From: a virus
Length of the DNA: 64,000 nucleotides
IMG/VR virus record: IMGVR_UViG_3300044966_000489
Direction: 5' to 3' (one strand)
The notes below the pieces were generated by a model that worked only from the letters and a program-made list of their open reading frames with translations, was not told the DNA's origin and searched no databases. The translations under genes were made by a program, and so were the position numbers. Positions 5,325-64,000 of this stretch are shown here, in pieces. Within the stretch, counting starts at the first letter, position 1; every line of letters starts with the position of its first letter.

Positions 5325-5354
5325 TTTTTCGTTTCCCAAATCGGTTTTTCTTCG

Positions 5355-5367
5355 GTGTAATTATTAT
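5355..5367 (+). promoter_or_regulatory. Candidate phage-sigma promoter (GTGTAA motif)
   Basis: GTGTAATTATTAT 6 nt before the RNR ATG; same motif at 21875, 42102-42107 (minus strand) and 42114. Confidence 0.5.
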
Positions 5368-5373
5368 CCCTAT

Positions 5374-42700: not shown

Positions 42701-42704
42701 TCCT

Positions 42705-45324: not shown

Positions 45325-46042
45325 TATTACCTTACACGGAGAAATAGCAGAACAAGTAGGAAGAGAAAGTTGGAATTTAAAAGTAAATTCCATAAAGGAA
45401 GCATTGCGAGCTATTCAGGTCTTGTCTAAAGGCAAGCTCTTAAAATATCTAATAGGAGCAGCAGAAAAAAGCGTAGAGTACAAAGTGCTTGTTAATAAGA
45501 GAGAAATAATGAATCCAGAAAATATTTCTCTAGAAAAACCAGACTCTATTCTCAATTCTGAATTAGTAATGATTAATGAAAAGCTAGAAACCTTAGATAT
45601 CGTTCCAATTATTAGGGGTGCTGGTGGGGGAGGCGGAAACAATACAACCAAAGGAGTCTTAGCTTTAGTTCTTGGCGTTTTGTTAATAGCTACAGGCGTT
45701 TTTGCACCTGCTGCATTAGGCTTTGTTGCTGGTTCTACAACAAGCGCAACGATTGCAGGAGCGATGATTGGAGCAGGTATAGGATTAGCTGTAACAGGTA
45801 TTACATTATTAATGATGTCGCCTCCAAAATTTGATGATTTTAGAAAAATACAAGAAGACGGCAGCAAGCCAAACTACTTATTTGATGGACCTTCTAACAT
45901 TCTTGGAGAAGGCGGTCCAGTTCCAATTGGTTACGGTAGAATGAAAATAGGATCTCAGACAGTTGAAGTATCTGTCAATAACATTGAGTTAGATAATAAA
46001 TCAACGGCAGCAGACGTAAAAGCTCAAATAAATAATATATAA
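45317..46042 (+). CDS. Tail assembly protein, lambda gpI-like (ubiquitin-like)
   Basis: ITLHG, IVPIIRGAGGG, hydrophobic stretch, YLFDGP.N..G.PVPIGYG..IGS. Confidence 0.9.
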   Translation: MTSITLHGEIAEQVGRESWNLKVNSIKEALRAIQVLSKGKLLKYLIGAAEKSVEYKVLVNKREIMNPENISLEKPDSILNSELVMINEKLETLDIVPIIRGAGGGGGNNTTKGVLALVLGVLLIATGVFAPAALGFVAGSTTSATIAGAMIGAGIGLAVTGITLLMMSPPKFDDFRKIQEDGSKPNYLFDGPSNILGEGGPVPIGYGRMKIGSQTVEVSVNNIELDNKSTAADVKAQINNI

Positions 46043-46043
46043 A

Positions 46044-49000
46044 ATGAACAATCTTGAAGATTTTAAATACATAAAAGGTTTTGGTGGAGGTGGAGGTGGA
46101 GCAAGTGCAGCCCCAACGCCAACTGCTGCATATGAAGATGCTGAAGGATTTGTATATGATGGACTTACTTATAACGTATACCAATTTGCTAAAGTAAAAG
46201 ATCTTTTGTCAGAGGGACCAATTGAAGGTCTTCTTGAGGGACAATATAGCTTTTCAGGTCAAGTTGGAGACCTAGGATTTAAAAAAGTTACTTATAATGA
46301 ATACCCATCAGTTGTGGGTAGCGATGGAGAATCAAAATATTTAAGATCAGTTCAATGGAATCAAACCCCTCTTTTAGACAGCCAAGATAAATACAACTTC
46401 CAGCAAATAAACATTCAAGCAACTAATGGAACCCCAGAAGGGACTTCATCTGGAGGAGAGTTTGACAATGTTTCTTATATCCGCTCAATAGGAGAGAGAC
46501 TTAGAGGTCCAAATCTACTAGCTTCAACTGAAGATGAAACTCTTGATTATCAAAGAACTTATCGCATTTTAAACAGGGAATGCAAAAAGATTTCTCTTAA
46601 TTTTAGAATTTCTTCTCTTTATGTCAGTTTAAAATATCAGGATTTAAAACCAATATCAGAAGGCACTTTAAAAATAGAAGGAGTAACAAGTGCCAATCAA
46701 AGCAGCAGCACATTTACATTAGATCCAGCAAGTAGAGATGTTGAATTAACTAATGGACAAACATTAGATGCTGGGGTGGGTTCTGTAATCCGTCATAACT
46801 TTAAAATAAGAATTAGAATTTCGCCAATTTACAAAGAAGGCTATAATAGCAACTCCGCAGTACTTGATCTAATTTCAGACAAAGCCAAAGTAATTGATGA
46901 TTCTAAAGACTTAGCTGTCACAGTGGACACTTTCCCTCAAATATTCGAACTAGAGTCGAAAGGAAAAATTACTCAAGGATATTCTAAACAAATTATTTTT
47001 GACACCTCTTCCAAGTTTCTATCATTGAACGAAAATGAAAATTGGTTAGGTTGGGATATATCAGTATTAAAGATTACTCCAGAAGACACTTATTCTTCAA
47101 GAGCTTCTTTTATAAATCTAGAAAGCATTACTGAAATATATTCTTCTTCGTTTAGATATACGAATTCTGCTATTGTAACTTCTAAGTTTAATGCTGCCTA
47201 TTTCTCAAAGATTCCAGAAAGATCTTATGATGTTAAACTATTAAAGGTTAAGGTTCCTGCTAATTATGATCCAATAACAAAAACCTATGGAAATACGACT
47301 CCGCTTTCAATTACAGCCACTAATTCATTCGCTAAGACTGATAAAGTAATTACAACAGATTTCTTTGTTGGAGAAAATAACGTATATACAAATTCAGACA
47401 ATGTTAACCCTCCAATTACAGATGGACTAATTGCTCAGTTTGACGCAAGTAATGCTTCTTTAACCACTTCAACAGGATCAGTAACTAATTGGCCCAATAC
47501 TGTAGCTGGATCAACTATAAAATGCGTTTTAGGAAATGGAACTTACGCATCTCCAAATGGAAGTGCTAACAAGCCAACATACGGATCAACATATTCAGAG
47601 CAAAGCCCGAATGGAACTTATGGTGTTTCATTTACGACCACTCAGAAAGCAAGATTCGTTTACCAAACCGAAACAAGTCCATTAGCTGACGCTAGTAATA
47701 ACTATACTGTATTTGCTGTCTGTAAATGGCACGACAGCGCAACCAACACAGAAAGGAATAGGATAATTTCTTCTTATAGTTTGGAAAATACTTTTGTTTT
47801 GGGGTTTGATGGTAAATTTAATAATGCTTTTACAGTAGGTAGTCAAATCTATGGAGTAATGCCTGTTAATTTTTATCAATTCAACCGTTCTAATTATTGG
47901 AATGATGCCAATGATACAAATACCTATATCGTAGGAACAAGCGTAAGCAATTTAAAAGATGTAAATATTTTCTGGCAAAATACTAACTACTTTGTAAGAC
48001 CTATAAATGCAGTAGCTGCTCCAAAAGGTTTAGCTATTAATTCTTCAGCGAGTACAAGTAGATGCACTGTTTTTGAAATATTGGTTTACAATAAAGCTTT
48101 ATCAAAATCAGATGGAATCAAGATAAGAAATTGGTTAAATAAAAAATGGAATCTAATTTCTAGCAATCTATCTTACTCTACATCTGTAGCTGGATCATAT
48201 AATACAAACGTTCTTAATGTAGCATCAAACACTTATTTGAAGATGCCTCTTAAAACTCTATGCGCCAATGGACAAAGAACAAAGGCTTATAGTTATGCTG
48301 GAGGCAGTTTGGCTACTTCGGATTATTATGAATTTGATTTAATACCTCAGAGATATTGGAAAAATTGGAAAACCCCACAAAACTTTTCTTTAAAAGATCA
48401 AGGATTTTGCAGTTTTTATTGCGATTTCTTTATTAAACTAGGAAGCATTGGAGACGGAAATTATACTCTAATTCATAGAAGTAATCAGTTTAATCTTTCT
48501 ATGACTATATCTGGAGAAAACGTAAGTCTAATACTTACAGTTATTTCTCCAAATGAAAGCAAAAATTACACCATAACAAAAGCCCTAGATCCAGCGAAAT
48601 ATTCGACAACCAAACTTAAAGAAAATTTCACAAGAATTAGTTTTTATATACTTCCAAAAGTAGTAAAACCAAGCATATCGTACACCACAAACGCAAGCAA
48701 AGTAAATAACATAAATATATCAGATAGGACTTGGACTAATGACTATATAACAGTCAGAAGAGCAACGGCTGACGGAAACGAAAGAGCATTAGCGCAAGAA
48801 CTAAAAGATTTTTATTTAGTAAAAGCAGTAAGCTTTAAAGAAGATACTTCGTACAGTAGCAATATTAATAACTTACCAGAAACTTGTTATAAATATATAT
48901 ACTGCAATTTTAATGCAGCCTCACAACAGACAGGAGGAAGGTCTTCAACTTTTGTTCCTGTTATTGAAAGAAGACTTACTAAAGAATACTTCCCAGACAT

Positions 49001-52000
49001 ATTGAATGCAGAAATAGACGTTCTAGTTAACCTAGAAAAGCAGATTCAATGCAATATAAATATTTCAAATTACGCTGCTTATCAAACTCTTTGTGTTGGA
49101 GCTTTATATAGACCCGCTACAGATCCTGTTTGGCAAAATGAAATAAATCAAAGGGCACAGATAGCTCCACTTGCTCAAGAAGCCTTAAATACCTACAATA
49201 AACAGGAATACCATAAAACATTTGACGGTTCTTCTACTTCAGTAAGTTTAAGCTCTTCTCAGAGTGAAATTAAAGTACTTATTCCTCTTGCTGCTGGACA
49301 AATTTACGACGCAGTAAATACAAAAACTGGACCTTTTATTCCTTCTTATTTCATAACTAATAATAATCAAATAGAAATCTTTACATCACCCGCTGGTTTC
49401 GGCGGCAAAATAGAAGGCTATGCTGATTCTATTAGAGTAAATCAAATTGATTTTGATAGACTTTCTTTGTCTAAAGCATTTGCAAGAAATCTTTTCTCAG
49501 AAGGTCTTTCTAGAAAAACCACTGTTTATGATGCAGCAGGAGTTTTACCTTATTCTACATCAAATGATTATTGGGATGGAGAATTTAAAACTGAAAAAGA
49601 ATGGACGGACAATCCAGCTTGGTGCTTCTACGATCTTTTAACAAACAAAAGATATGGAGTAGGTAACTATGTCACAGAAAATGACGTAGACAAATGGTCT
49701 CTTTATCAAATAGCTAAATATTGCGATGAACTTGTTTCAGATGGATTTGGAGGAGTAGAACCAAGATTTACATGTAATGTTTATTTACAAACACAAGACG
49801 ATGCTCTTAAAGTGTTGTCTGATATGGCTTCTGTATTTAGGGGAATGTTCTATTATTCAAATGGATTCATTTACGCCATAAATGATATGCCAGAAGATAC
49901 CCCTATTTATTCTTTCACTAATTCAAATGTATCTGATGGTAATTTTACTTACGAATCTACATCATTAAAAGATAGAAATTCTGTAGTCTATATTAGATAT
50001 ATTGATAAGAATAATTTTTATAAACCAGCAGTAGAATATGTAGAAAATATTGAGGCTGTCAGGAAATTTGGTTTTAAAGAAACTGAATTAACCGCCTTTG
50101 GATGCACAAGCAGAGGTCAAGCTCAAAGACTTGGCAGGTGGTTATTAGCTTCAGAATACAATGAAACAGAAACAGTTTCTTTTGAAGCTGGTCCAGAGTG
50201 CGTATACTTAAAACCCGGAGACGTAATTAAAGTTTACGATTACAATAGAAAATATAAAACAGTAGGCGGAAGATTAAATAATATTAACATTTCTGGAGAC
50301 ACAAATGTAACTACTGGAATACTAACTCTAGATAGAAAACTTGATTTTAACTTTTCTGGAAATCAAAATTATAAGCTAACCATACTTTCTCCCAAGTATA
50401 ATCTAGATCCTAGCTTTAAAGACGCAGCAGGAGACAGTATCGTTACTAGTAACCTTGATTATAATGATTATAGAAAGCCTCTTACTAATTCATTCATAGT
50501 AGGAAGCGGCAACTTAATTACTGGTCAATATTATGATTCAATTAGAATTACGGGTCTAGCACCAGTAATGGCTTCTGGATTAAACGTAACTGGACTATCT
50601 TATTTTACTGGAGCGTCTGGAATGTCTCCTAAATCAATAACTTGGGCTTTAGAAAACTCTGGAAACCTTAATGGATCTACTGATAGCGATTATGATTTTT
50701 ATAGAGTATTTAGAATACAAGAGTCTACAGAGGGAAGTAATTATACAGTAATTGGCTCGCAGATGTATCACTTAAAGTATGCTCAAATAGAATCTGGATT
50801 AAATATCACACCAGCAAAACCACCAGCACCAGAAGCTTCTGCGCCTTCAAGAGCATTATTTACTCTTGGCGTTGCAGAGGCTAATGGAGTAATAGATCAA
50901 AGCAAAGTATTGATTGAAATCTTTTATGACTCTTCTATAAAAGACACTACGATAGGCTTCAAGATATTTAACAAAGCCTTTTATGGATCAGACTTTAACC
51001 CAAATAGCTCTAGTGATTTTAAATTTGTTCCAATCGATATTTATGAATCTTATGTAAACACTGTTCTAGACAAGAGCAACATCAAAGGTTCTATAAGAAT
51101 TTATGGAGCAAATATTAATAATAGCTCTCCATTAACTTATGTTGAAGCTTCAAATTCTCAAAACTCAAATGAATTATTTGTCTCTCCAGTTGTTGCGATT
51201 ACTTATGACGATGTAAATACAAGTTCATCTATCACTTTGAATAATAAAGTTTATGCTTTTACCTCTCCAATTGATTTAACGAAAGCACAATACTTTCAGT
51301 CAACAGCACCTTCTCAAATTCAATCTGTTAAACCTCCAGAGTCTTTATCGTTCAACATCCCCTTGCAATTCATAAAGAATCCAAATAAATTCAACAATCT
51401 TGATTACCCTTATAGAATAGCAATAATACCAGAGAAAGTAGACACAAAAGACGCTTTCGGCACTGTTTACAACAAGTACCTTAATGTTTCAAACTGGGAA
51501 GACTATTTAACGTTTGATGAAGATCAAACTAGTGACAATATATACAACTACAAAACTTCAAATGTTTTTGCTAAGTATAGGAACTTCTCTTTGGCAATTG
51601 ATAAAATGACATTTACAGATGTTGGAATGAAATCTACTTCTAATGATTTTAAGAATGTAGATGGATTTTTACTAGTAACTTACGACAATCAAGATGCTGA
51701 TTTAAAAAAATCTTTAAATGCAATTTTAAAAGACACAAGAGCGACCTACTCTATTGTTACAAGCCAAGGATCAAATAGATTAAAATTTACTATTCAGCAA
51801 GATACAGCGAGTTCTTTTATTAACGCTTTTTATCTATTACTAATGCCTAGTGAAAATATATTTGAATTTGGAAAAAATTCAATAAATCACAATCCTGATG
51901 GAAGCCCATTGTCTGTTAACGATAATACTGGAAAAGAAATCATTGACTCTCACTTTATAACAATATCAAATAACCAATCTATATTTAATTTCAATGACTT

Positions 52001-53414
52001 AAGCGATGACAACGGTAAGGGATTTGATTCTACTCAATATAATGCTTATTTGATAGCTGTAGATTCATTCATGTTCGCTTGGCAGTTTAACTCAAATGCA
52101 GCAACAGCAAGAAATATCTTAGACTATTATTCTTCTTTCATTGATAAAGATAATAACATAGGTAAAATTTACCCTCAAATTAGTGACCCAATTGTTATAA
52201 AACAAGAATCATCTACTCCATTATCTTTCTCTCTAGAGTCTGTATTAAAAGATGCTGATACTAGATATCTCCATTTTACAATTAATAAAACTGTACTAAC
52301 TGAAAATATATTTGATACTAGCGTAAATACGCTCCCTTCACCAGCTTATGCAATTTCTAGAAAGAGCGTAATTTATAAGCCTACTACAAACGCAAACCTA
52401 GCAGCAGGAGCTAAAGATGATAGAGTATTATCTTCAGATCCAGACGGCACTATGGCTTATTACAAACTCTCTTTACAAAATAGAGATAATATACCAAATG
52501 CATCATTATCACCGAAAATACCCACTGGCAAGAGAGCTTATGTTTTAAATGGCAATAAAATTTTTACAAGAGCTTTAGTTCCTGACGCAAATACTGTTTC
52601 TTTAAGAGCAGTAGAATCAGAAACAGCTAATGCTTTTAAGTCTAAAGCTAAAATAACAAATAGCTCTTTTGGCGAAGGAAACGAAGAGTTTTTCGACATC
52701 TCTATAACAAGATTAACTAATAGCACGTTTACTGGAAATATAAAGAGTTTAATTCCTGATTATACAAATACTTATTTAATTCCTATAAACGCCTCAAATT
52801 CAAACACTGAAGAAAATGCAAAAAGCAATTTTAATAGTTTATTAAATGATGGATTGCTCAATTCATCTTTCAATGCTATAAACGTTACTCCTGAAAACAA
52901 CTTTTCTGAACTTGGAGTCAATACTAAAAATGTTCAAATGTTGATAAATGCAGAACCAAACAATTTCACTGTTTATACTATAAATCAGCAAACAGCTAAT
53001 TCGTTTAATTTTGGTATAGCAAATTCTTCTTTCTATGCTGGAGTTCCAGTATTAGAAAATGAATCTTTGTCTATTTTCTTTACAATTGGAAGCGTCAACA
53101 AAACAAAAGCTATAAAGGTATATTGCTTTATTGGAGAAGATTTTGTAGCTAGTGAAGTAGATAAAACCCAAATAATACCGGGAGACGATAACATAATTAA
53201 GGTTACATTAAAAAATGTTCCTTATGCAAATTATTACGCCAACGCTTCTTCTTATTCTGCTGATGCATCAATAACTAATCCAACTTTCTGGAAATTCAAG
53301 AGTGCTAAAAACTTAGCTTTTGCACATTTGTCCGCAAGATCTAACAATAGATCATTTCCATTATATAATTTCCATATCCAAGCACTAGAACTATCAGTAG
53401 TAATAACTTACTAA
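46044..53414 (+). CDS. Tail tip/host specificity protein, lambda gpJ-like
   Basis: DLLSEGPIEGL, KVKVPANYDP, WTDNPAWCFYDLLTNKRYG, YCDELV.DG.GG.EPRF, AFGCTSRGQAQR.GRW, PGDVI. Confidence 0.92.
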   Translation: MNNLEDFKYIKGFGGGGGGASAAPTPTAAYEDAEGFVYDGLTYNVYQFAKVKDLLSEGPIEGLLEGQYSFSGQVGDLGFKKVTYNEYPSVVGSDGESKYLRSVQWNQTPLLDSQDKYNFQQINIQATNGTPEGTSSGGEFDNVSYIRSIGERLRGPNLLASTEDETLDYQRTYRILNRECKKISLNFRISSLYVSLKYQDLKPISEGTLKIEGVTSANQSSSTFTLDPASRDVELTNGQTLDAGVGSVIRHNFKIRIRISPIYKEGYNSNSAVLDLISDKAKVIDDSKDLAVTVDTFPQIFELESKGKITQGYSKQIIFDTSSKFLSLNENENWLGWDISVLKITPEDTYSSRASFINLESITEIYSSSFRYTNSAIVTSKFNAAYFSKIPERSYDVKLLKVKVPANYDPITKTYGNTTPLSITATNSFAKTDKVITTDFFVGENNVYTNSDNVNPPITDGLIAQFDASNASLTTSTGSVTNWPNTVAGSTIKCVLGNGTYASPNGSANKPTYGSTYSEQSPNGTYGVSFTTTQKARFVYQTETSPLADASNNYTVFAVCKWHDSATNTERNRIISSYSLENTFVLGFDGKFNNAFTVGSQIYGVMPVNFYQFNRSNYWNDANDTNTYIVGTSVSNLKDVNIFWQNTNYFVRPINAVAAPKGLAINSSASTSRCTVFEILVYNKALSKSDGIKIRNWLNKKWNLISSNLSYSTSVAGSYNTNVLNVASNTYLKMPLKTLCANGQRTKAYSYAGGSLATSDYYEFDLIPQRYWKNWKTPQNFSLKDQGFCSFYCDFFIKLGSIGDGNYTLIHRSNQFNLSMTISGENVSLILTVISPNESKNYTITKALDPAKYSTTKLKENFTRISFYILPKVVKPSISYTTNASKVNNINISDRTWTNDYITVRRATADGNERALAQELKDFYLVKAVSFKEDTSYSSNINNLPETCYKYIYCNFNAASQQTGGRSSTFVPVIERRLTKEYFPDILNAEIDVLVNLEKQIQCNINISNYAAYQTLCVGALYRPATDPVWQNEINQRAQIAPLAQEALNTYNKQEYHKTFDGSSTSVSLSSSQSEIKVLIPLAAGQIYDAVNTKTGPFIPSYFITNNNQIEIFTSPAGFGGKIEGYADSIRVNQIDFDRLSLSKAFARNLFSEGLSRKTTVYDAAGVLPYSTSNDYWDGEFKTEKEWTDNPAWCFYDLLTNKRYGVGNYVTENDVDKWSLYQIAKYCDELVSDGFGGVEPRFTCNVYLQTQDDALKVLSDMASVFRGMFYYSNGFIYAINDMPEDTPIYSFTNSNVSDGNFTYESTSLKDRNSVVYIRYIDKNNFYKPAVEYVENIEAVRKFGFKETELTAFGCTSRGQAQRLGRWLLASEYNETETVSFEAGPECVYLKPGDVIKVYDYNRKYKTVGGRLNNINISGDTNVTTGILTLDRKLDFNFSGNQNYKLTILSPKYNLDPSFKDAAGDSIVTSNLDYNDYRKPLTNSFIVGSGNLITGQYYDSIRITGLAPVMASGLNVTGLSYFTGASGMSPKSITWALENSGNLNGSTDSDYDFYRVFRIQESTEGSNYTVIGSQMYHLKYAQIESGLNITPAKPPAPEASAPSRALFTLGVAEANGVIDQSKVLIEIFYDSSIKDTTIGFKIFNKAFYGSDFNPNSSSDFKFVPIDIYESYVNTVLDKSNIKGSIRIYGANINNSSPLTYVEASNSQNSNELFVSPVVAITYDDVNTSSSITLNNKVYAFTSPIDLTKAQYFQSTAPSQIQSVKPPESLSFNIPLQFIKNPNKFNNLDYPYRIAIIPEKVDTKDAFGTVYNKYLNVSNWEDYLTFDEDQTSDNIYNYKTSNVFAKYRNFSLAIDKMTFTDVGMKSTSNDFKNVDGFLLVTYDNQDADLKKSLNAILKDTRATYSIVTSQGSNRLKFTIQQDTASSFINAFYLLLMPSENIFEFGKNSINHNPDGSPLSVNDNTGKEIIDSHFITISNNQSIFNFNDLSDDNGKGFDSTQYNAYLIAVDSFMFAWQFNSNAATARNILDYYSSFIDKDNNIGKIYPQISDPIVIKQESSTPLSFSLESVLKDADTRYLHFTINKTVLTENIFDTSVNTLPSPAYAISRKSVIYKPTTNANLAAGAKDDRVLSSDPDGTMAYYKLSLQNRDNIPNASLSPKIPTGKRAYVLNGNKIFTRALVPDANTVSLRAVESETANAFKSKAKITNSSFGEGNEEFFDISITRLTNSTFTGNIKSLIPDYTNTYLIPINASNSNTEENAKSNFNSLLNDGLLNSSFNAINVTPENNFSELGVNTKNVQMLINAEPNNFTVYTINQQTANSFNFGIANSSFYAGVPVLENESLSIFFTIGSVNKTKAIKVYCFIGEDFVASEVDKTQIIPGDDNIIKVTLKNVPYANYYANASSYSADASITNPTFWKFKSAKNLAFAHLSARSNNRSFPLYNFHIQALELSVVITY

Positions 53415-53415
53415 A

Positions 53416-54114
53416 ATGAAACACTACATCGTATATTTTATAAATGGCAGTCACAAATACCTCCAATCTTCTCTCGACTTGATGGAAAATTTAGATCGCC
53501 TAAAGCTTGTAGGAATAGAGTATGAAGTTGTAGACTACATTGTACCTTTAGAAAAACACATTGACCAAAGCATATTAGAACATAGAAAATTTCTTCCTGA
53601 TGGAAACTCTATATGGAAAAAAGAAAATCTCATTGATAAAAAAGTTAAAGAAATGACTGCAAAAAGAAACACTTTATTGCAGAAGCTTGATATTGACTTC
53701 ATTATCTCTCTAGAGACTCCCAACAATAAACAAACAGAAGTCATTAAAAATAACAAAAAGTTTCTAAGAGAACTCTCTTGTAGAACTGAAATGCAACACA
53801 TTCATGATTGCGAAAAGATAAACAAGTTTAACGCCTTTCATAATATTGTTGATATACAAATTATTGACCCCGGATATGGATGCTCAGAACCTGTTCCTTG
53901 CGTCACCATCTCTCCTCCTGAAGAAACCGAATACAACTACGGCTTAACCGCTTCTGCTCATGCTGTTAGAGGCTCAAAAGGAGAGCTACTTTCTTTAACA
54001 ATGGAGAAATTAGGTTGTGGTTATATTTCAGATCCAGAGATTAAAATAAGTGGATATGAATCAGAAAGCGCAAAACATCCTATTGTAAAAGCAGTGATTG
54101 GCAATATAATGTAA
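53416..54114 (+). CDS. Tail fibre assembly-like/structural hypothetical protein
   Basis: R..LL.KLD...K..LREL segment and G.GY...P.V.I repeats found in phage tail proteins. Confidence 0.5.
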   Translation: MKHYIVYFINGSHKYLQSSLDLMENLDRLKLVGIEYEVVDYIVPLEKHIDQSILEHRKFLPDGNSIWKKENLIDKKVKEMTAKRNTLLQKLDIDFIISLETPNNKQTEVIKNNKKFLRELSCRTEMQHIHDCEKINKFNAFHNIVDIQIIDPGYGCSEPVPCVTISPPEETEYNYGLTASAHAVRGSKGELLSLTMEKLGCGYISDPEIKISGYESESAKHPIVKAVIGNIM

Positions 54115-54117
54115 CAT

Positions 54118-54945
54118 ATGACGGATGTATTATTTTCTTTTGGCGACGAATACATATATTCTAACAACCTAGCAAACTGGTCTACAATAGAACCCAGTAA
54201 AGAAATAGAAATTATTGGCAACCCAGAGAAGTTCTCTGTTGTGCGAACTGCCGTCATTAACTACAGCAAGCCTTTTACTGTAGAATCAAGTTTATTAATT
54301 AAATTTAGCGGCACAATTAAAGATTTAATCTTAGATGGAGACACTATTGATTGCTATTTTGCTCTTTACTATGCTGCATTAATTAATGACATTACTGAAT
54401 CTGGATCTGGATACAAAGTAAATGAATATGTAACTATTGGTAAAAATTCTTACTTTGAATCGTCCATAGATAAAAACCAAAAAGCTGTCCTTCAAATTAA
54501 AGCTGTCAATAGTGATGGCGGTATTACTGAACTCCATTTAATTAACAATGGAAAATTTACTCAAAATTTTACTGAAGCAGAATTAGAAGGCGGATCTGGT
54601 AAAGGCGCAAAAGTAAGCTTGATTTTGGGTAAAGACAACAAGAAGGCTCTTAAGTTTTTTTCTGTATTGGACGTAAAGCGAGAAAACGCTTCTACTCTTG
54701 TAATGTTAAATGAAAAGATTAAAGACGACTTCCTTACAGGAGAAGTCTATATAAAACGATACCGCATTACATTAAATAAGGCTACGGGCAAGGAATACCT
54801 GAATCAAGCCTTCATTGTAAAGGTAGACAAGACTCCTTTTCTTAATCTACCATTAGCCAAAGACAACAATATAGAGCAAATCTATAATCAGGCTATACTA
54901 ACTATAGATTCTAAGATTAAAGAATTATCTGCTGGCGTAAAGTAA
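54118..54945 (+). CDS. Hypothetical virion-associated protein
   Basis: I.ESGSGYKV, GGSGKGA motifs seen in tail proteins. Confidence 0.5.
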   Translation: MTDVLFSFGDEYIYSNNLANWSTIEPSKEIEIIGNPEKFSVVRTAVINYSKPFTVESSLLIKFSGTIKDLILDGDTIDCYFALYYAALINDITESGSGYKVNEYVTIGKNSYFESSIDKNQKAVLQIKAVNSDGGITELHLINNGKFTQNFTEAELEGGSGKGAKVSLILGKDNKKALKFFSVLDVKRENASTLVMLNEKIKDDFLTGEVYIKRYRITLNKATGKEYLNQAFIVKVDKTPFLNLPLAKDNNIEQIYNQAILTIDSKIKELSAGVK

Positions 54946-57900
54946 TCCTCCGGGTCTCTTCTGCTCGACCAATACTTCAACGACTTTGCTTCTGAGTAGT
55001 TCAGCGAGTTTAGCATTGTTTTGAATATTGTTCTGATCTTTATTAGTATTGGAGCCACCATTTTGAGTGGTAGCATTAGCTTCAGAAGTGACTTCGCCGC
55101 TTTGAGCAACATTAATTGAAATGTTATTAACTACAGACATTCCAGATTCTTGATTTGCTCCAGCAGCAGAAATTTTACCTGACTCAGCTTGGGTGATGTC
55201 ATTGCCCTTGGAAAGGTTTTCATTCAATGTATTAAGAGCAGCGACTAGTTCGGTCACGCTAGATTCAGGAGTATTTTGACCTGCTGTATAACTTGTACCA
55301 ACCATTCCTCCGCTGGCATACTTAGGCAATGTACCAGTATTCAATTGATTCATGAAGTCTCTGCCGTACATATCTACAGCTTTCTTGTTCATGACATATT
55401 CGCCGCCCATTAACAAGGCAGGAATATTATCTTTACCTGTTGATCCACCGCCAGCAAATCTAGCTATATAGCCGCCATTTGACCTAAGATTTCTTGCATA
55501 TTGAGCGTTTAATTGAGCTTGAGTTAAGTTGCCTCCGGGTTCTAGACCTCTTGCAGCAGATGTTGCTGCATTAGTTCTCATATTAGCTGCTCCAACCGTA
55601 AGACCAGCAGCACCTAATTGAACAGCAGCAGCAGTTAAACCTGAATAGAAAGTGCTATTTACTTGATTTTTGTAATTTTTAATAGCTTGCTGTTTGTCTT
55701 TCTCATACTGCGATCTGTCTTGCAAGTATTGATCAAGTTTTTCATAGCGATCTTGTCTTAATCTATTTTGAGGATTATTCTCGTCAGTTAAAGCTGCGGC
55801 TGATAGTCTAGAATCAACAGCAAACTCCCCAGAAGTTGGACGATCAGGATTATCATATAAGAACTCATTTTGTAATGGACCCATTGAGAACCCACCTACT
55901 GCATATTTGGGAACAAGTCCGCCATTCAAGGCTCTTAAATAATCAGAACCGTATTTTTTAACAGAAGACTTCTTGATAACGTATTCGCCGCCACTCATCA
56001 TAGCGGGTACATCATCTTTCATTCCAGAGCCACCAACAACCATACCTCCAGAATTATAACCTCTGATTAATCCACCATCTTTTCTGCCAGTTGCAGCTTT
56101 ACCAAAAGCAAATAAAGCATCAACTCCCATCTCTAAAGACTTATCAAGCATTCTATTTAAGATGCCTTGGAACATATCTCTAAATGCATCCTTAAGAGTT
56201 TTAGTTCCTTTGATAGCTTCACCAAATGCACTAGCAATACCTGATTTGAAATCAGTTTGGAAAGTGTCGATCAATTGACCAGTATCTCTAGCAAAATCGG
56301 CTCTATTGTAAGTAGTATTTTTTTCTGTTATAGCTCCAATAGCTACTCTTCCTTGACGAGCTTCATTTTCAATTCTAGCATTAGCAAAAGCCGCTCTTTC
56401 ATCCTTAAAGAAAGTTTCTCCAAACGAACCTTTGTAATATAAATTATACAACTCTTCTGCGACCTTACCTTCTTGCTCTAAAGTTTTCTTTCTTAGCTCA
56501 GTCTGAAGTTTAATTAGGTCTTCTCTTTTCTTTGTATCATTTAGGTCTTCTTTTAAAAGGTTATTTACTTTTTCGTTAAGATCGACAAGCTGTTTATCAT
56601 TTTCTAATCTAGCCAAAAGCAAATTATTGATACTATCTAGATTTGCTCTTCCTTGAGCTAATTGAGTTGGTAAATTTCTTTTAGCACCGCCTTGATCTGC
56701 TAAACCATATTTATCAATGATATCTTGTAAAGAAGGCGCAGTTGATTTATTGCCTACTGACATTAAAGGAGAAGCCGAGTCTAATCTTCTTAACTCTTCT
56801 TGTGCAGATTTAATAGACTTTACAGTCTCCTCTGCCATAGAGACTTTAAAATCTCTATTTATATCTTGAGTTAATCCTTTATAGGTTCCTGAGAGGTTAA
56901 TCTCTGGACGACCAATTGATTTTTCGCGTGAAGCGATTAATTGCTCTAATCTTTTTTGATTTCTTAATTGATCTTCATAGGAAGAGCCTAGATCTTCCTG
57001 CAACACAACTGCATTATTTATAGTTTCTCTAGAAGTACCAGTCCCGTAATAGCCTTTTCCATAGCTAACACCTCCAGTAATATTCCCATAATCATCTCTT
57101 GAAACTTTAGATGGATCTCCAATTAAATTTTTATAAGCTTCTGTAAAAGCTCCTTCTGCTCCGGTTACTGTTACTAAATCAAAACTCTTAAAATAATCTT
57201 GTAATTTTTTAATCTCTTTTTCTCTTGCTAGTCTTATTCCTGCTTCGGCGTTGTTAGTCTGCATAGATATGGACCCTTCTGTATCTCTTAAATTTTGTGA
57301 CGCAGCTATTCTATTCAATATTGCTTGTCTATCTGCTGGAGATACGTCAGCAGGAAGCTTATTAAACATTTCGGATTCAAGAGCGTTTCTTTTTGTAGCA
57401 ACTCCTAATTTGTTAATAACTCCCTGTAATGAAGTAGTTAAGCTATCTAATTTGCTGCCTACTTGTTCTGTTATAACTCTATTAAAGTTCTCATTTATAG
57501 TAGTTGGCAATGTTTTTTCTAAAATAGAATTTTGATCTTGTGTTAGGTCATTTAAGAATCTAGCTTCTTGTTGTAATACGTCAAGATAGTTCCCCATATT
57601 CTCTAACTTAAACTGAGAAGTAATTTGATCTAAAGCAGTTTTAACTGCGCCTTCTTTTGCTTGGTCAAAAGCCGTTCCTAAAGCAGTACCGGCTGTTGGT
57701 TTACCCATTTGAATTTCAGTAACTCTGCGAGCTAAATCTACGCTTTCTCTTATTTGCTGCACTCTGCCAGCAATAGCTGTTCCTACCAAAGGATTTAAAT
57801 CAGAAGACACTTGATTATTAAAAGCACTTCCACTGGCACTGGGTCCAATGAATCCGCTTGGTTGACCAATGCTTCTATTTAATTGTAATTGATTAGTTAA

Positions 57901-60900
57901 TACATCAAGCAATTTAAAAGCACTAGATCCCCTTTGAGCAGCATTTCCAGCAACGTTAGTTTGTCTAAATTCTGAAACTAATTCAGAAATATTATCAAAA
58001 AGTTCAGAAACCCCCGCTTTACCAGTGGAACTCAAAGCTTGTGCGCCACCAGCAAAAGAAAGTCTTTGATTTAGCTCCAAAGACTGTTTTTGATATTCTC
58101 TTTGGGCTTCTTGAATTTGAATATCTATATCGCCTTGAGCTTTTATTTCGGCGAGAGTATTTTGAAACTCTCCAAAAGATACTTCAAGAGTTTGCACAAG
58201 AACATCTCTTTCTTCTGGCTTGAATTGAGAAAATCCTCTTATGTTATTTATTAAATTTGTTTGTATATCTCCTATATTACCACCAGAATTTATTTGTTTT
58301 AATGATTCAGCAATTAAAGGAGTTAATTTCTGAATTTGATTTTGGAAGACGGCTCTTTCTTGTTGAATAGCATTTTCAGACTTGGCACCCTCAATAGCAG
58401 GAATAACTTTTGATCTAGCTTCTTCTGATTTTTTAATTATCGTATTTGAGAAAGAATCTAAAAGTTTATTAGAAGCCTCTTGAATTTTAGAATTTTGTCT
58501 AGAAGTTATCTCATTTAGATCTAATTGATTTTGGATGTCCGATTTTGAAGACTCGCTAATAAATGGAGTAGCTGATTCTAAAAGACCTTTAACTCTAGCT
58601 CTTTGGATTGAAACCGCGCCTTCTGCTTGAATTTTATTTATCTCTCTAATAGTTTGAGCGCGATTTTTTTCTATATCAATTTGATTAGAGATTTGAAGAT
58701 TGATGCTATTGTATTGAGAATTTAAAGATTTAAGAACTTCTTCATTTTCTTTAAGTCTCTTAGTGTTTTCTGCTAAAATTTCTCCAAGGTTTTTCGATCT
58801 TTTGGCGAAATCAAAAACGTCTATTCCTGCTTTTTTGAGCGAGTCGAATAAAGAACTTAATGCTACAGTATCAAATTCAGCAAAAGCTTTGTCAAGCTGA
58901 TCAATTATTTCTTCAGGAATAACTGTATTCTGTTTTAACTGAGCTTTTATATTTTCTACGCTCTCTTTATTAACCATTGGTTGTGCGCCTATGCGGGAAC
59001 CATAAGGCCCAATAGTCTCTTGACTATAAATAATTGCTTGAGATTTTAAAGAATCAATAAATTTAGAAAAGTCTGCTGCGGCATTTTCTCCAGTAAATTT
59101 TTTAGTTATATCTTCTGATCTAATAGAAGAGGTGAATAATCTATTAAACACTTCTTGATCTTTTGGCTTTAAACTACTTCTACCCAAAAAAGAAGATTGC
59201 TTTTCAATAAATTGCGTGATAGCTAATTGTCGCTCTAAATTCTTTTGCGTATTGGCCATTTCTTTATTTACTTCACCAATAGCTTCAGTAACCTTACTTA
59301 TCTCCGTCCCTGCGGCTAACACTTTACTTCTGAACTGTTCAGGAATACTATTTAAAGCTTCTGTTAAATTATTTTGAAACTTTAATAGTGCTTCAGGCTT
59401 TGTCTTAGGATCATTTAAAGCGTTTTGTAAACCTTCTAAAGAAGTAGAGTAATTTTGAGCGGCACCAGAAAACTCAGCAGATCTTTCTTTTGTCTCTCCC
59501 AAAGATTTATTAATTTTATCAATAGCCTCTTCAGCTTTGGCATCTTTTAATTTAATAAGAGCAGATCCAGCTCCTAAAATTACTCCTGCTATTGCTCCGT
59601 AAGGGCCAAACTGTGCCCCTAAGCCAGCAAAAGAAGCTATGTCTCCTAAGCCAGAAGCTGCGGCTCTTCCTGTTTTATTTTCTGGAGATATGAATTGTCC
59701 ACCAATATTTGAAGCTACACTACCAATTAAACCAATTTGAGTGCCAAGCCCTCTAACGTATCTATCTGCTTGCCCTCCAGACGCAAAACTTGCTCTTGAA
59801 AATACAGGAGCTTGAGCCTGTCTTATATTTTCTTGCGCTTGTCTTCGTCCTTCTCTAGCAGCAGATAATTCTTCTCTTGCTTTTTTTCTTAGTTCAGATT
59901 GTTGTTTTCTTAACTCTTCTAATCTAGCTACTTGTTCTGGAGACGCAGCAACAGGAGAGCTTGTAACAATACCAAATTGATCTCTAGTTGTTTTCCCTAC
60001 TAAAGGACCAGTAGCAGTGCCTTGAAGCTTTAAAGTCGTTTTATTTACATTTGTAAATGTTCTTTCAATCTCATCGGATATTGCTTTTTGACTCTTTTTG
60101 AAGTCTTTTGGTATTTGTCCTATCTGTTGAGAATAAGAAGCGGCAGCAGAAGCATTTGATTTAATTAAAGTATCAGAACTACCTTTTAAAGTTCTAAGGC
60201 TTCCTGCAACTTCTTTTAAAGCAGTACTAAGAGTTCCAAAAGCAGCAATTAATATAAAAGCATCTGCGCCCCCAAACTCAGCAAAATTAGGAATATGTCC
60301 TCTTGCAGACATTCCTTTTGTCTTAGGGTCTATTCCAGCTTTCTCTGCCAAGCCAATTCCATTATTAAGAGATCCTTCTGTAGAATTATAAACACCCAAT
60401 CCCATTGGATTGAAGCTAGTCTTTAATTTATCGCTTCTACCTAATCTAACCTGAGAAGCAGAATATCCAGCAGACATCTCTCTATTCATTGCCTCCATAA
60501 CTGGATTAAAATTAGGAATATAACCTGAAGCAAATCTAAAATCATCTTCGTATCCGAGACTACCTAAAGAAGATTTTCTCTTAGAAGCTAGGCCGCTTCC
60601 TAGATTAAACATTCCTGTATCAACTATACTAACTTTACCACCTTTAGTAAAAATAGAGCTTAAAATTCTGTCAATTTGAGCTTCTGCATCTTTGTTGTCT
60701 TTTGATTCAATAGACTTTAGTAATTTCTCATAATTTCTTCTAGAAATCTTCGACAAGATACCTTCAGCTACTTGATTATACATCATATTGCCAAGGTTTT
60801 GAGTTAAATCAACTGCCTCCATTCTACCTCCTGCATTAATTTGAGAAGTAGCTCTGTCGGCTATGATTTCTGCGAGTTGGACAAATCCTCTTCTTTCTCC

Positions 60901-63900
60901 AGTATATTCGTCTAAATTTTCAGAAATTTCTTGTGCTGTTTTTCCAGAAAAAATCTCTTTATAAATAGCACTCTTTTGTATAGCTTTTGACAATGCTCCG
61001 TAAATCTTAGGAGTTTCAAAAATTGGGTTTAATTGTTCTGCATCAATCATCTGGCCAAGTTCTTGTGAAGCTAAGTATTCATTTGCTACATTAGATTTTG
61101 TAGATGATTCGTTATCTGGGAATTGTTTTACTCCTAGATTTCCTCTTAATGCAGAAAATGTTCCAAAAAATCCGGGTTTTCCTAATTGCATTCTAGCAAA
61201 GTTAGGAATATGACCCGATGAATAATTAGATACGAAATCTCTAAACTTTGAAGCTTTGCCCTCATCAATAATAGATTTGTTTTGCTTATAAGTAGAAATG
61301 ATGAAGTTCATCAACTCGGGAGTCAGAGAACCTTGAATTTCTTTTAAATAAGAACCCACTTGCTCTGCGTTAGCTGCCCAAACGCTTGCCATTGATTTAG
61401 CATGAGCTTCTCCTTCTGTTCTATTAACTTGGTGAGCGGCTTCATGAAAAACAGTATCTAATATTTCTCTAGAATAGATGTCTCTAAATTTACCAACTGA
61501 TTTTATTTTCTTTCCTTGTTTAGCTTTTTCTTGAGAAATCTTTCTAATTCTATCTATAACTGTCTCTACATGAGCAAATGGTTCAACTATAGATTTCGTA
61601 CCTACTTCTTTTGATGAAGCAGTATTTAAACCCATCCAATTAGCTCCAACAGCTAAACCTCTAAATGAAGCATTAGCCATTCTTGGATCAAAAATCTCAG
61701 AAGCCTGTCCAATTGTTTGTTCAAAAACGCTTTTTAAAGCAGCACCAAAATTTTGGAATTTAGGATTTCCAGCAATACTCTCCATTGTTCCTTTAGGCAA
61801 AGAAGAAGAAACATCAAGAAGCTCAAGATCAGAACCCATTTGATAAGAAGGGACATTCCTAACGCTATCTTCTTGAGCGCGTTTTAATTGTGCAGCTAAA
61901 TCCTGTACGGCAGATTTTGCCATTTTGCCTAATGGCCCTCTTAACTCAGTTCTGTCAGTATTCCAAGGATAATTTGGATCACCTGCACCAACATTACTCC
62001 TAACATTAAACATTAAACTTTTAGGAATATAGTCTACTCCTTCTACTTTATAGTTAGCATACTTCATTCCCTCTGACAGCATGGGAATCTGAGCGTATCC
62101 ATAAGTTTTTTGAGGATCTCCTTGAGGATCAAACAATATATCTACTTCTCCACCTTCTGCCGTTAAAGTTCTTTGTACTGAAGATTTACTAGGATCAAAT
62201 TTAGAAAAATAATATTTTCTATAGCTAGGATCTTCATTTCTAGTATTAATTGTTTGCCTCAATAAACCAGAAGAAGCAGTAGTAAATTTAAATGGAAGTT
62301 CTGCTACTTTTCCTGCTCTATTCTCTAAATAACTTCCATAAGATATATAACCCTCTTTAGAAGGAGAAGCAGCGAAAGTGGTTCCCATTATTGGAGTATT
62401 CTTTTTTTCTGGATTGACTTCTCTCCAAAACATTTTTAACCCATCAAAATTTAAATCACCTCTTGGTTGATTAAAAAGAGTTTCATCTAAACTTATTTTG
62501 CCCTTTTGTATGAAATTATTCCATCCTTCTGGGGTTCCAGAAACAATTGTTCTTATCTTTCTACCATTTATTTCTTTTATAGTATCAAGAAGGAACTTCT
62601 TGGAACCCATGAAAATAGAAGCTTTTCCCATTCCAAATCCAGATAATCCTTTATTACCTCCTTCATTTCCTGTTTGAGCATATGGTAAAAATTTAGTGAA
62701 TACATCTTCTGGAGACATTCCAGTGCCAACATCACTAATTGCAAACTCATTTGGCTTTCCATATCCGCTTACTCCAATGAAAACTCCCTTTTCTTGTCCT
62801 GATTGACCGTGAGCGACAGCGTTTTGCAAAGACTCTCTAAATACTGTTTCGGGATTAATATCCATTTGTGCTAAATTAATTCCCATTAATCTAGCAGTAT
62901 TTACTGTTTGAAAGTCTTTTTGAGCAAAATTTGGTATAAAACCTTTTGAAAATCCAGTACTAAGTTGACTTACCTTTTTTTCTTGAGCCTTAAAATGCTC
63001 TGCCATTTGTAGGCCGAATTTCTTCTTAACTTTACCAATAAACGATCTTACAGCATCATCATTATTTCTTAATTTATAATCTCCATATTGATCTCCAAAT
63101 CCGGGGAAAAACTGTCTTACATTTCCAATATTTCCCCCAATTACGTCAAAATCTCCAACACCACCACCAGATTGATCTCTTGTGTAATTAGCGGCTAAAT
63201 TAGTAGAAGCTTCAAAAATAGTACCAGCAAGAACAGAATAATTTTTACCTGCCTTATTAAAAAATTCATCAACAGAAGCATCCGAATATTCTCCGGGTCT
63301 AATATAATTAGCAATTTGTTTTGTTGTTCTGCGAGAGAAATCTGCTGTTTGTGTAATTAGATTAGTTTTTTCTTCGTTTTGAGAAGACGAATTTAAAGCA
63401 TAAGATTTAATCTTAAAAGCTCTTCCGTCTTCTTTTCTCTTAGTTAATATTTCTTCGGTCTTTTCATCTGCAAATAGTTCCTTATTTTTTGCATCTAAAT
63501 CAAATACAAGCATTGAAGCAGGAGGAACATAAGGATCATAAACTTGCTTAATTCCTTCTTTGATATTTTCTTGACCTGCTATTTTCTTTCCGGGTGCAAA
63601 GTCGCGTCTAATAGCGTTTAAATCTGATATAGCTCCAGATTTCCATCTTGGATCATCTTTTAAAAGACTATCTGGAACATACTTTCTAATGTCTCCATAA
63701 GTAGCCCCTCTTCTCACAAATGTATTTAAATCATTTGCAGTAAAAGCAGAACCATCAGTTTTATAAAAACCTTTATCTTGACTCCAAGCTGCCGATGTTC
63801 CAGTTGTAATTTGAGAAAGAGAAACGGGAGCAGATAGACCAGACCCAAGCCACCAATCATTATCTCCATAAGAAGGATTGGTTAAAGGTTTTGGAGCAAA

Positions 63901-64000
63901 ATTAGGAATGAATCCTTTAGCCATGTAAGGATTAATTCCATTTTTAGCCATGGATTTTGAAGCTAATTGAGTTGCTGCGCGAGATCCTTGAGGAGGAAGA
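54925..64000 (-). CDS. Giant tape measure protein with embedded enzyme-like cargo domains (5' end outside window)
   Basis: Frame stays open from 63951 to 64000 (LPPQGSRAATQLASKSM); long helical Ala/Gln/Lys/Glu core, Gly-rich hydrophobic segments, C-terminal GG..G..D.VPAM..GEYV and E.R.GG.L motifs typical of TMPs. Confidence 0.85.
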   Translation of the reverse strand, partial: LPPQGSRAATQLASKSMAKNGINPYMAKGFIPNFAPKPLTNPSYGDNDWWLGSGLSAPVSLSQITTGTSAAWSQDKGFYKTDGSAFTANDLNTFVRRGATYGDIRKYVPDSLLKDDPRWKSGAISDLNAIRRDFAPGKKIAGQENIKEGIKQVYDPYVPPASMLVFDLDAKNKELFADEKTEEILTKRKEDGRAFKIKSYALNSSSQNEEKTNLITQTADFSRRTTKQIANYIRPGEYSDASVDEFFNKAGKNYSVLAGTIFEASTNLAANYTRDQSGGGVGDFDVIGGNIGNVRQFFPGFGDQYGDYKLRNNDDAVRSFIGKVKKKFGLQMAEHFKAQEKKVSQLSTGFSKGFIPNFAQKDFQTVNTARLMGINLAQMDINPETVFRESLQNAVAHGQSGQEKGVFIGVSGYGKPNEFAISDVGTGMSPEDVFTKFLPYAQTGNEGGNKGLSGFGMGKASIFMGSKKFLLDTIKEINGRKIRTIVSGTPEGWNNFIQKGKISLDETLFNQPRGDLNFDGLKMFWREVNPEKKNTPIMGTTFAASPSKEGYISYGSYLENRAGKVAELPFKFTTASSGLLRQTINTRNEDPSYRKYYFSKFDPSKSSVQRTLTAEGGEVDILFDPQGDPQKTYGYAQIPMLSEGMKYANYKVEGVDYIPKSLMFNVRSNVGAGDPNYPWNTDRTELRGPLGKMAKSAVQDLAAQLKRAQEDSVRNVPSYQMGSDLELLDVSSSLPKGTMESIAGNPKFQNFGAALKSVFEQTIGQASEIFDPRMANASFRGLAVGANWMGLNTASSKEVGTKSIVEPFAHVETVIDRIRKISQEKAKQGKKIKSVGKFRDIYSREILDTVFHEAAHQVNRTEGEAHAKSMASVWAANAEQVGSYLKEIQGSLTPELMNFIISTYKQNKSIIDEGKASKFRDFVSNYSSGHIPNFARMQLGKPGFFGTFSALRGNLGVKQFPDNESSTKSNVANEYLASQELGQMIDAEQLNPIFETPKIYGALSKAIQKSAIYKEIFSGKTAQEISENLDEYTGERRGFVQLAEIIADRATSQINAGGRMEAVDLTQNLGNMMYNQVAEGILSKISRRNYEKLLKSIESKDNKDAEAQIDRILSSIFTKGGKVSIVDTGMFNLGSGLASKRKSSLGSLGYEDDFRFASGYIPNFNPVMEAMNREMSAGYSASQVRLGRSDKLKTSFNPMGLGVYNSTEGSLNNGIGLAEKAGIDPKTKGMSARGHIPNFAEFGGADAFILIAAFGTLSTALKEVAGSLRTLKGSSDTLIKSNASAAASYSQQIGQIPKDFKKSQKAISDEIERTFTNVNKTTLKLQGTATGPLVGKTTRDQFGIVTSSPVAASPEQVARLEELRKQQSELRKKAREELSAAREGRRQAQENIRQAQAPVFSRASFASGGQADRYVRGLGTQIGLIGSVASNIGGQFISPENKTGRAAASGLGDIASFAGLGAQFGPYGAIAGVILGAGSALIKLKDAKAEEAIDKINKSLGETKERSAEFSGAAQNYSTSLEGLQNALNDPKTKPEALLKFQNNLTEALNSIPEQFRSKVLAAGTEISKVTEAIGEVNKEMANTQKNLERQLAITQFIEKQSSFLGRSSLKPKDQEVFNRLFTSSIRSEDITKKFTGENAAADFSKFIDSLKSQAIIYSQETIGPYGSRIGAQPMVNKESVENIKAQLKQNTVIPEEIIDQLDKAFAEFDTVALSSLFDSLKKAGIDVFDFAKRSKNLGEILAENTKRLKENEEVLKSLNSQYNSINLQISNQIDIEKNRAQTIREINKIQAEGAVSIQRARVKGLLESATPFISESSKSDIQNQLDLNEITSRQNSKIQEASNKLLDSFSNTIIKKSEEARSKVIPAIEGAKSENAIQQERAVFQNQIQKLTPLIAESLKQINSGGNIGDIQTNLINNIRGFSQFKPEERDVLVQTLEVSFGEFQNTLAEIKAQGDIDIQIQEAQREYQKQSLELNQRLSFAGGAQALSSTGKAGVSELFDNISELVSEFRQTNVAGNAAQRGSSAFKLLDVLTNQLQLNRSIGQPSGFIGPSASGSAFNNQVSSDLNPLVGTAIAGRVQQIRESVDLARRVTEIQMGKPTAGTALGTAFDQAKEGAVKTALDQITSQFKLENMGNYLDVLQQEARFLNDLTQDQNSILEKTLPTTINENFNRVITEQVGSKLDSLTTSLQGVINKLGVATKRNALESEMFNKLPADVSPADRQAILNRIAASQNLRDTEGSISMQTNNAEAGIRLAREKEIKKLQDYFKSFDLVTVTGAEGAFTEAYKNLIGDPSKVSRDDYGNITGGVSYGKGYYGTGTSRETINNAVVLQEDLGSSYEDQLRNQKRLEQLIASREKSIGRPEINLSGTYKGLTQDINRDFKVSMAEETVKSIKSAQEELRRLDSASPLMSVGNKSTAPSLQDIIDKYGLADQGGAKRNLPTQLAQGRANLDSINNLLLARLENDKQLVDLNEKVNNLLKEDLNDTKKREDLIKLQTELRKKTLEQEGKVAEELYNLYYKGSFGETFFKDERAAFANARIENEARQGRVAIGAITEKNTTYNRADFARDTGQLIDTFQTDFKSGIASAFGEAIKGTKTLKDAFRDMFQGILNRMLDKSLEMGVDALFAFGKAATGRKDGGLIRGYNSGGMVVGGSGMKDDVPAMMSGGEYVIKKSSVKKYGSDYLRALNGGLVPKYAVGGFSMGPLQNEFLYDNPDRPTSGEFAVDSRLSAAALTDENNPQNRLRQDRYEKLDQYLQDRSQYEKDKQQAIKNYKNQVNSTFYSGLTAAAVQLGAAGLTVGAANMRTNAATSAARGLEPGGNLTQAQLNAQYARNLRSNGGYIARFAGGGSTGKDNIPALLMGGEYVMNKKAVDMYGRDFMNQLNTGTLPKYASGGMVGTSYTAGQNTPESSVTELVAALNTLNENLSKGNDITQAESGKISAAGANQESGMSVVNNISINVAQSGEVTSEANATTQNGGSNTNKDQNNIQNNAKLAELLRSKVVEVLVEQKRPGGLLYASR
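60280..63915 (-). repeat. Five dispersed G[FHY]IPNF[AN] peptide repeats in the TMP
   Basis: 63895-63915 GFIPNFA, 62923-62943 GFIPNFA, 61195-61215 GHIPNFA, 60505-60525 GYIPNFN, 60280-60300 GHIPNFA. Confidence 0.9.

Follow-up and report, generated by a model that had tools for sequence, protein, structure and literature searches.

A minimal protein-kinase-like domain within the modular tape measure protein of a phage

The DNA analysed here, from an uncultured phage (IMG/VR record IMGVR_UViG_3300044966_000489; 64,000 nucleotides, hereafter the window), carries on its minus strand a gene for a tape measure protein (TMP), called as an open reading frame (ORF) at 54925–63999, the 5′ end of which is cut by the window end. 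Residues 936–1158 of this truncated ORF (P0001) form a minimal protein-kinase-like domain of 223 amino acids (aa) (60526–61194, minus strand), which fills exactly the gap between two G-x-IPNF motifs. Our favoured reading, to which we assign a probability of roughly 0.55, is that the segment is a minimal, catalytically competent kinase of the protein-kinase-like (PKL) superfamily that belongs to an N-proximal array of cargo modules in the TMP of a siphophage, is injected and modifies a host component. The parts of this reading differ in strength: a kinase-like fold with intact catalytic residues is close to certain; real phosphotransferase activity is probable; and injection followed by action on a host target is tentative.

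A conserved set of kinase motifs between two linkers

The first-pass annotation of the window had proposed a kinase at this location from a series of short motifs, and every string that it quoted is found in the minus-strand frame of ORF 54925–63999. Following the upstream linker motif GHIPNFA (61195–61215; all features of the TMP given here and below are on the minus strand), the chain reads LGKPGFFGTF (61156–61185), which contains the Gly-rich loop GKPGFFG (61162–61182), GVKQF (61120–61134) with Lys958 (61126–61128), the equivalent of the ATP-binding Lys of β3, NEYLAS (61066–61083) with Glu974 (61078–61080), the equivalent of the αC Glu, and PKIY (61000–61011). The catalytic loop, AVDLTQNLGNMMYN (60775–60816), holds Asp1064 (60808–60810), Asn1071 (60787–60789) and Asn1075; the string DLTQNLGNMM is present there as described, although the coordinates first given for it (60787–60810) span only 8 of its 10 residues, the true extent being 60781–60810. 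A three-helix insert between β7 and β8 (residues 1076–1118; 60646–60774) separates this loop from IVDTG (60613–60627), the DFG equivalent, with the Mg-binding Asp1127 (60619–60621), and the downstream linker motif GYIPNFN (60505–60525) closes the domain.

An exhaustive phmmer search of 1.84 billion representatives returned 22 matches to the domain, nine of them at E ≤ 1e-10 and nearly all within proteins of 2500–5300 aa; two entries of this list (P0021 and P0023) were set aside as repetitive low-score matches. A word-indexed search added ten further copies, 57% identical, in proteins of 3100–3900 aa, the source name of which is "TP901 family phage tail tape measure protein". Neither the domain nor the gene was matched in 50,697 cultured or deposited phage records (tblastn, megablast), and the family so far appears to be restricted to metagenomes. 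Alignment-based searches of proteins of 104–412 aa and 413–2000 aa yielded no stand-alone forms, which, the searches being word-limited, is weak evidence of absence, and a feature-based search of a protein atlas gave no usable match to the domain.

Conservation was assessed in 34 non-identical copies with about 29% identity. Lys958, Glu974, Asn1071, Asn1075, Asp1127, Pro997 and Lys1014 are 100% conserved, as is Gly943 of the Gly-rich loop, with Gly940 and Gly946 at 94–97% and both Asp1064 and the Gly of IVDTG at 97%. Alignment A1, which comprises 20 sequences (mean identity 29%), contains 13 invariant columns, including a Gly of the Gly-rich loop as well as K23, E39, D129, N136 and D192 in domain numbering. 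The family consensus reads LGxGxFGxF ... IGKKxF ... IAxEY ... PKVxG ... RIGKEVxxGKT in its first half (the Gly loop itself being LGxGxFG) and DLHxxNxxLN ... (35–56 aa) ... KKGGRxSxIDPGxF in its second, an order that corresponds to Gly loop, β3 Lys, αC Glu, β4/β5-hinge, catalytic loop and DFG. In the 57%-identical sister clade, the catalytic loop reads DLVGKPEN, that is, the eukaryotic protein kinase (ePK) signature DLKPEN with two extra residues. Because the fully conserved columns include K958, E974, N1071, D1127 and P997, the resemblance of the motifs to those of kinases exceeds chance; the residues singled out in the first pass are conserved throughout the 34 copies despite their low mean identity. 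Pairwise identity is 0.39–0.49 in the nucleotide-binding and catalytic blocks, 0.13 in the αD–αE region and 0.20 in the helical insert, which also varies in length from 35 to 56 aa across the family. The catalytic residues are under strong purifying selection. The family has no Pfam or PHROG model, and building one would improve the metagenome annotation of giant phage proteins.

Sequence profiles and predicted structure converge on a truncated kinase fold

When the domain was searched as a single sequence in Pfam, PHROGs, NCBIfam and the PDB sequences, no kinase was matched and only noise came back (MIF4G, LegC3_N, MexC). At E ≤ 10, a hidden Markov model (HMM) built from A1 matched 258 distinct PDB sequences; protein kinases made up nearly all of these, with CDPK the best (E 1e-4) and CaMKII, DAPK, S6K and MLCK next. 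In the profile alignments, the Gly-rich loop falls on the GxGxxG loop of kinases, the invariant Lys on the VAIK Lys (of CDPK, among others), the invariant Glu on the αC Glu, and the D...N pair of the catalytic loop on HRDLKPEN of solved kinases. The profile of a deeper alignment, A2, gave the same picture; its two top PDB matches, de novo designed TIM barrels, were spurious, arising from four weak repeats summed against the KKGGxISIVD block. Among the curated Pfam models, Pkinase (PF00069) was touched by 2 of the 20 members (E 0.005) and ABC1 likewise by 2 of the 20, all under the curated cut-offs.

AlphaFold2 run on A1 produced a model with a mean pLDDT of 91.1 and a pTM of 0.86, in which β1–β3 are followed by a long αC (helix 32–51 of the model, which includes Glu974), β4, a short helix, β5, αD and αE, and then by β6, the catalytic loop, β7, three helices (141–153, 155–163 and 167–183 by DSSP), β8 and a terminal helix. 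Foldseek against the PDB returned kinase-like proteins only, headed by Ark1, PRPK/Bud32, Rio2, Wee1, RET and Src (E 4e-4 to 1e-2). In VIA, a structural search independent of Foldseek that covers 48,161 representative chains, all of the top 50 chains were kinase-like (Z 10.5–8.2, rmsd ~3 Å, 123–165 residues aligned), including BRAF, ULK4, Rv3197, Rio1, Rio2, Bud32, APH(2''), RIOK3, ADCK3 and Ark1. The structural neighbours in BFVD (viral proteins) and in the ESM Atlas are also kinases, the best Atlas row being a 381-aa cluster that has no name and occurs most often in Verrucomicrobiota. The top Foldseek and VIA matches cover model residues 1 to about 200, and the aligned ranges of VIA targets such as BRAF (460–600), PknB (14–163) and PKR (270–439) end just beyond DFG, which places Asp1127 at the DFG position. 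When both flanks were added, the core of the domain remained above pLDDT 90 and unchanged, and the GxIPNF motifs (residues 1–19 and 241–261 of the flanked model) had pLDDT below 50 and no secondary structure; the possibility that these motifs are strands of the kinase fold was ruled out on these grounds.

Family conservation, the profile alignments to solved kinases and the high-confidence model together bear out the proposed kinase-like domain, along with its Gly loop, β3 Lys, αC Glu, catalytic loop and DFG equivalent. What the model does not show is a complete bilobal kinase. The expected PKL elements are all there, namely a five-stranded N-lobe sheet with αC, a hinge, αD/αE, a catalytic loop and a β7–β8/DFG region, but the C-lobe stops at the DFG equivalent. 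The anatomy is that of a complete N-lobe, hinge, αD, αE, catalytic loop, variable insert and β8 with the metal-binding Asp1127, succeeded by a linker predicted to be disordered; the domain ends about 30 residues after DxG, with no activation segment, APE motif or αF–αI; as the chain runs from the DxG region straight into the GxIPNF linker, the usual substrate-binding C-lobe is missing. Two further features are atypical. The residues preceding the catalytic Asp are A-V rather than H-R, and the insert, 43 aa long in the window copy, splits β7 from β8, strands that are paired in a tight hairpin in ordinary kinases. The domain accordingly falls outside canonical Pkinase (PF00069), of which it lacks the gathering score, HRD, the activation segment with APE and αF–αI.

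The carrier tape measure protein and its modules

A near-identical IMG/VR record (G001) contains a 100%-identical copy of the domain (residues 1535–1757) inside a 3623-aa ORF (P0002), which provides the missing N-terminus of the carrier. The first ~545 residues of P0002 correspond to a canonical TMP core (Pfam PF10145 at the N-terminus), and the N-terminal 620 aa match, by tblastn, proteins annotated as TMPs in Bacillus phages Staley, Slash and Kirov and in Lactococcus phage phiL47. After the core come the linker-bounded modules, in an array of ~1200 aa, then a conserved piece of 68 aa, segments that are hydrophobic and Gly-rich, a long body of helices and C-terminal TMP repeats; there is a match to PHROG 3547, "tail length tape measure protein", at the C-terminus, and the genes beside the TMP gene are tube, gpL-like and gpJ-like tail genes. 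The N-terminal core, helical body, hydrophobic segments, C-terminal repeats and position among tail genes all indicate that the carrier is a TMP.

Five G-[FHY]-IPNF-[AN] linkers bound the cargo modules in the visible part of the TMP (63895–63915, 62923–62943, 61195–61215, 60505–60525 and 60280–60300), and look-alikes occur at 55900–55920 and 55315–55335. In 31 of the 34 family copies, the kinase is preceded by such a motif and starts 6–9 residues after the start of it, and most copies end no more than 10 residues from the next one. Every protein that carries a homologue has the TMP core, with the kinase located anywhere from residue ~620 to residue ~1940, and a TMP may contain one copy, two (P0005, P0008) or three (P0003), in tandem or dispersed, with the catalytic residues intact in each. 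The modules adjacent to the kinase also differ between carriers: the GHKL-HExxH module found next to it in the window is common only to P0019 among the kinase-bearing relatives, and an obligate pairing of the two was rejected for this reason. Hence, the kinase is a mobile, linker-bounded module embedded in TMPs.

The linkers resemble the G[LT][VL]PKYA sequence that ends each classical C-terminal TMP repeat of the same protein and, given this resemblance, may have their origin in an ordinary TMP repeat element instead of being a dedicated protease site. The module preceding the kinase (61216–62922) has weak matches to Pfam HATPase_c and HATPase_c_3 (E 3e-4 and 7e-4, below cut-off) and an HExxH motif (FHEAAHQV). 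The 68 aa that follow the kinase (60301–60504) are not cargo; they are a conserved framework piece which comes after the variable array in most related TMPs and directly precedes the hydrophobic Gly-rich segments. Related TMPs (P0026–P0035 and P0004; P0006/P0009) hold other unnamed modules, PF23802 (DUF7178) and PF26092, and two related TMPs show a weak match to an anthrax-lethal-factor-type metallopeptidase (E 0.002, below cut-off).

The TMP gene runs towards tail-tip genes on the opposite strand (42146–54945, plus strand; gpL-like, and gpJ-like with Phage-tail_3), and the convergent ends of 42146–54945 and 54925–63999 overlap by about 20 nt, an arrangement unusual for a siphophage tail module. 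The phage also encodes a DnaE-type Pol III alpha subunit (26868–29456), a class II (B12) ribonucleotide reductase (5290–7341) and a DnaB helicase (22187–23671), all on the plus strand. The GC content of the window is 34.5%, and the longest contig with the TMP is 167.8 kb.

Proposed mode of action and alternative explanations

Under the favoured reading, ATP-Mg would be bound between the lobes as in other kinases and the γ-phosphate moved to a hydroxyl of the target, which may be recognized by the variable αD–αE surface together with the helical insert. As part of the TMP, the kinase would be stored in the tail tube, probably in an unfolded or extended state; it would exit the tail before the DNA and refold on the cytoplasmic side beside the hydrophobic Gly-zipper segments of the TMP, and a host component, most likely a protein, would be modified before any phage gene expression. 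The case for delivery draws on the expulsion of TMPs from the tube, as in T5, on the RNA polymerase (RNAP) fused to the TMP of phage P23-45, on the predicted kinases of polyvalent proteins and on the placement of the domain in the cargo array, which sits directly upstream of the hydrophobic Gly-rich segments. In T5, the TMP resides in the tube lumen as a metastable trimer and is expelled on receptor binding (PMC10038345).

Several points weigh against this reading. With the HRD His/Arg, the activation segment and αF–αI all absent, the domain has no canonical peptide-binding platform. The Gly loop of the window copy has a one-residue insertion (GKPGFFG versus GxGxxG), its catalytic loop exceeds the canonical length by two residues (Asp to Asn +7 versus +5, the latter being the spacing in short-loop relatives), and Asn occupies a phosphate-contact position that is His or Lys in relatives. 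Moreover, none of the small proteins closest to the domain in structure is a classical protein kinase: Rio and Bud32 function largely as ATPases, Ark1 is an RNA kinase and APH a small-molecule kinase. The supply of ATP is confined to the cytoplasm, and we know of no precedent among relatives of this phage for the crossing of the inner membrane by this part of the TMP. Finally, considering the established dimensions of the tube and the trimeric state of the T5 TMP (PMC10038345), three 25-kDa globular copies by analogy cannot fit folded side by side in the tail-tube lumen.

The missing peptide-binding C-lobe is equally what one would expect of a kinase-fold enzyme delivered with the TMP but acting on a non-protein substrate, such as RNA or tRNA, a defence nucleotide or second messenger, a small molecule or a lipid. 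The structural ranking speaks for this alternative, with the archaeal RNA kinase Ark1 as the best Foldseek match (8yv5, E 4e-4) and with APH(2''), ADCK3/UbiB, PsiK, MTR kinase and ChoK-like phage proteins among the top matches, although Ark1 and Bud32 may rank so high simply because they are small. The best alignments of the sequence profile, by contrast, are to Ser/Thr protein kinases (CDPK, CaMKII, DAPK, S6K), the catalytic loop of the sister clade, DL(VG)KPEN, is of the ePK type, and the His of the Brenner-type HxDxxxxN motif is absent from the family. We therefore consider a non-protein substrate unlikely.

The presence of Rio1/2 and Bud32/PRPK among the closest structures (Z 9.3–10) also raises the prospect of a nucleotide-dependent switch or ATPase of Rio/Bud32 type, which would serve the TMP itself, either in tail assembly in the producer cell or in refolding and membrane insertion at ejection, with no host effector involved. 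Rio and Bud32 act mainly as ATPases within larger assemblies, and in every case the domain is built covalently into a TMP. A core mechanical role, however, poorly fits a module that is optional and mobile, is present in one to three copies and is placed among unrelated swappable modules, and the TMPs of cultured relatives with the same N-terminal core do without it. We rate this explanation as somewhat less likely again than a non-protein substrate.

It is improbable that the domain is a pseudokinase or structural spacer, in which the fold has been retained only as a compact unit, neutral in length, that fills space or provides docking with no catalysis. The deviations of the window copy from canonical Gly-loop and catalytic-loop spacing would be in keeping with such a role, and a fold alone does not show function, but the K, E, D, N and D residues are invariant or nearly so at ~29% identity, including in proteins with multiple copies, while the rest of the sequence drifts freely; pseudokinases typically lose one or more catalytic residues. 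The failure of single-sequence Pfam, PHROG, NCBIfam and PDB searches to match a kinase would fit a chance resemblance of motifs in a helical TMP segment, but this we regard as very improbable, given that profiles, two independent structural aligners, two libraries of predicted structures and conservation all converge on the kinase fold.

TMPs are usually viewed as rulers and channel formers with no enzymatic add-ons other than those directed at the cell wall. An essentially TMP-restricted and apparently active kinase family, as favoured here, would extend the known TMP cargo from an RNAP of the P23-45 type to host-modifying effectors. In a broader and rather doubtful generalization, the giant TMPs of siphophages could be multi-effector injection platforms that push one to three diversified kinases into the cytoplasm before the DNA, where these would phosphorylate components of host defence or gene expression within seconds of adsorption and before any transcription of phage genes; the insert would set the specificity, and the GxIPNF linkers would permit module swaps between phages. 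Being small (~220 aa) and easily expressed, the domain offers a concrete test object for the "polyvalent protein" hypothesis (Iyer et al. 2017).

Comparison with known systems

Kinase-PolyVal (PF18762) comprises truncated kinase domains of the Ser/Thr/Tyr type found in the polyvalent proteins of phages and plasmids, and those of phages have been predicted to modify host proteins (Iyer et al. 2017, PMC5512222). Like them, the window domain is a kinase-superfamily domain inside a giant multi-enzyme phage protein, has lost the C-terminal subdomain while retaining the residues for ATP binding and phosphotransfer, and has an insert between the position of the catalytic-loop His and the metal-binding Asp (here 35–56 aa, from DLHxxN to DxG). 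The PF18762 HMM, however, matched none of the 20 family members at E ≤ 1 and gave no six-frame match at E ≤ 10 in record G001. Two signature residues of the published description, the Glu before strand 2 and the Gln in the last N-lobe strand, were not seen in the window family, in which no Glu is conserved ahead of the Gly loop either and whose last N-lobe strand, by our own mapping, reads I-G-K-E-V with the invariant Lys1014. Furthermore, the window domain sits in a TMP, whereas the Kinase-PolyVal paper names no tape measure carriers (PMC5512222).

Similar to the window domain, RIO, Bud32/PRPK and Ark1 are kinase cores of ~170–250 aa that lack the activation segment and the substrate-binding lobe, and they rank at or near the top of its structural matches (Foldseek E 4e-4 to 4e-3; VIA Z 9.1–10.0); the DLT-type catalytic loop of the window copy is also RIO-like. 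No sequence match to Pfam RIO1 (PF01163) was found among the 20 family members, and the window domain differs in its 43-aa three-helix insert between β7 and β8, in the lack of a His before the catalytic Asp, in the apparent lack of the RIO N-terminal helices, in the lack of KEOPS partners, and in its context within a virion protein. The resemblance to Rio, Bud32 and Ark1 is one of size and structure and goes no further.

The N-terminal part of the 5002-aa TMP of Thermus phage P23-45, gp96, has been shown experimentally to be a virion RNAP that transcribes the pre-early genes and so works from the outset of infection (Chaban et al. 2024, PMC10770324). As we read the window TMP, both proteins are giant siphophage TMPs with an enzyme acting in the cytoplasm built into their N-proximal part. 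In gp96, this is a single enzyme, an RNAP, at the N-terminus, whereas the window TMP would carry a kinase among several linker-delimited modules placed after a canonical core; the former is known by experiment and the latter predicted from sequence and modelled structure. Phage T7 gp0.7, to which PMC5512222 also refers, is a protein kinase that phosphorylates host machinery early in infection. Unlike the domain described here, it is produced as a free protein from an early gene once the DNA has entered and is not a component of the virion, and no sequence or structural match between the two was seen. In our literature search, no publication connected a kinase domain with a tape measure protein. 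In sum, the kinase effector module of giant phage proteins is known, whereas the TMP is a new carrier and the family to which the window domain belongs is unnamed.

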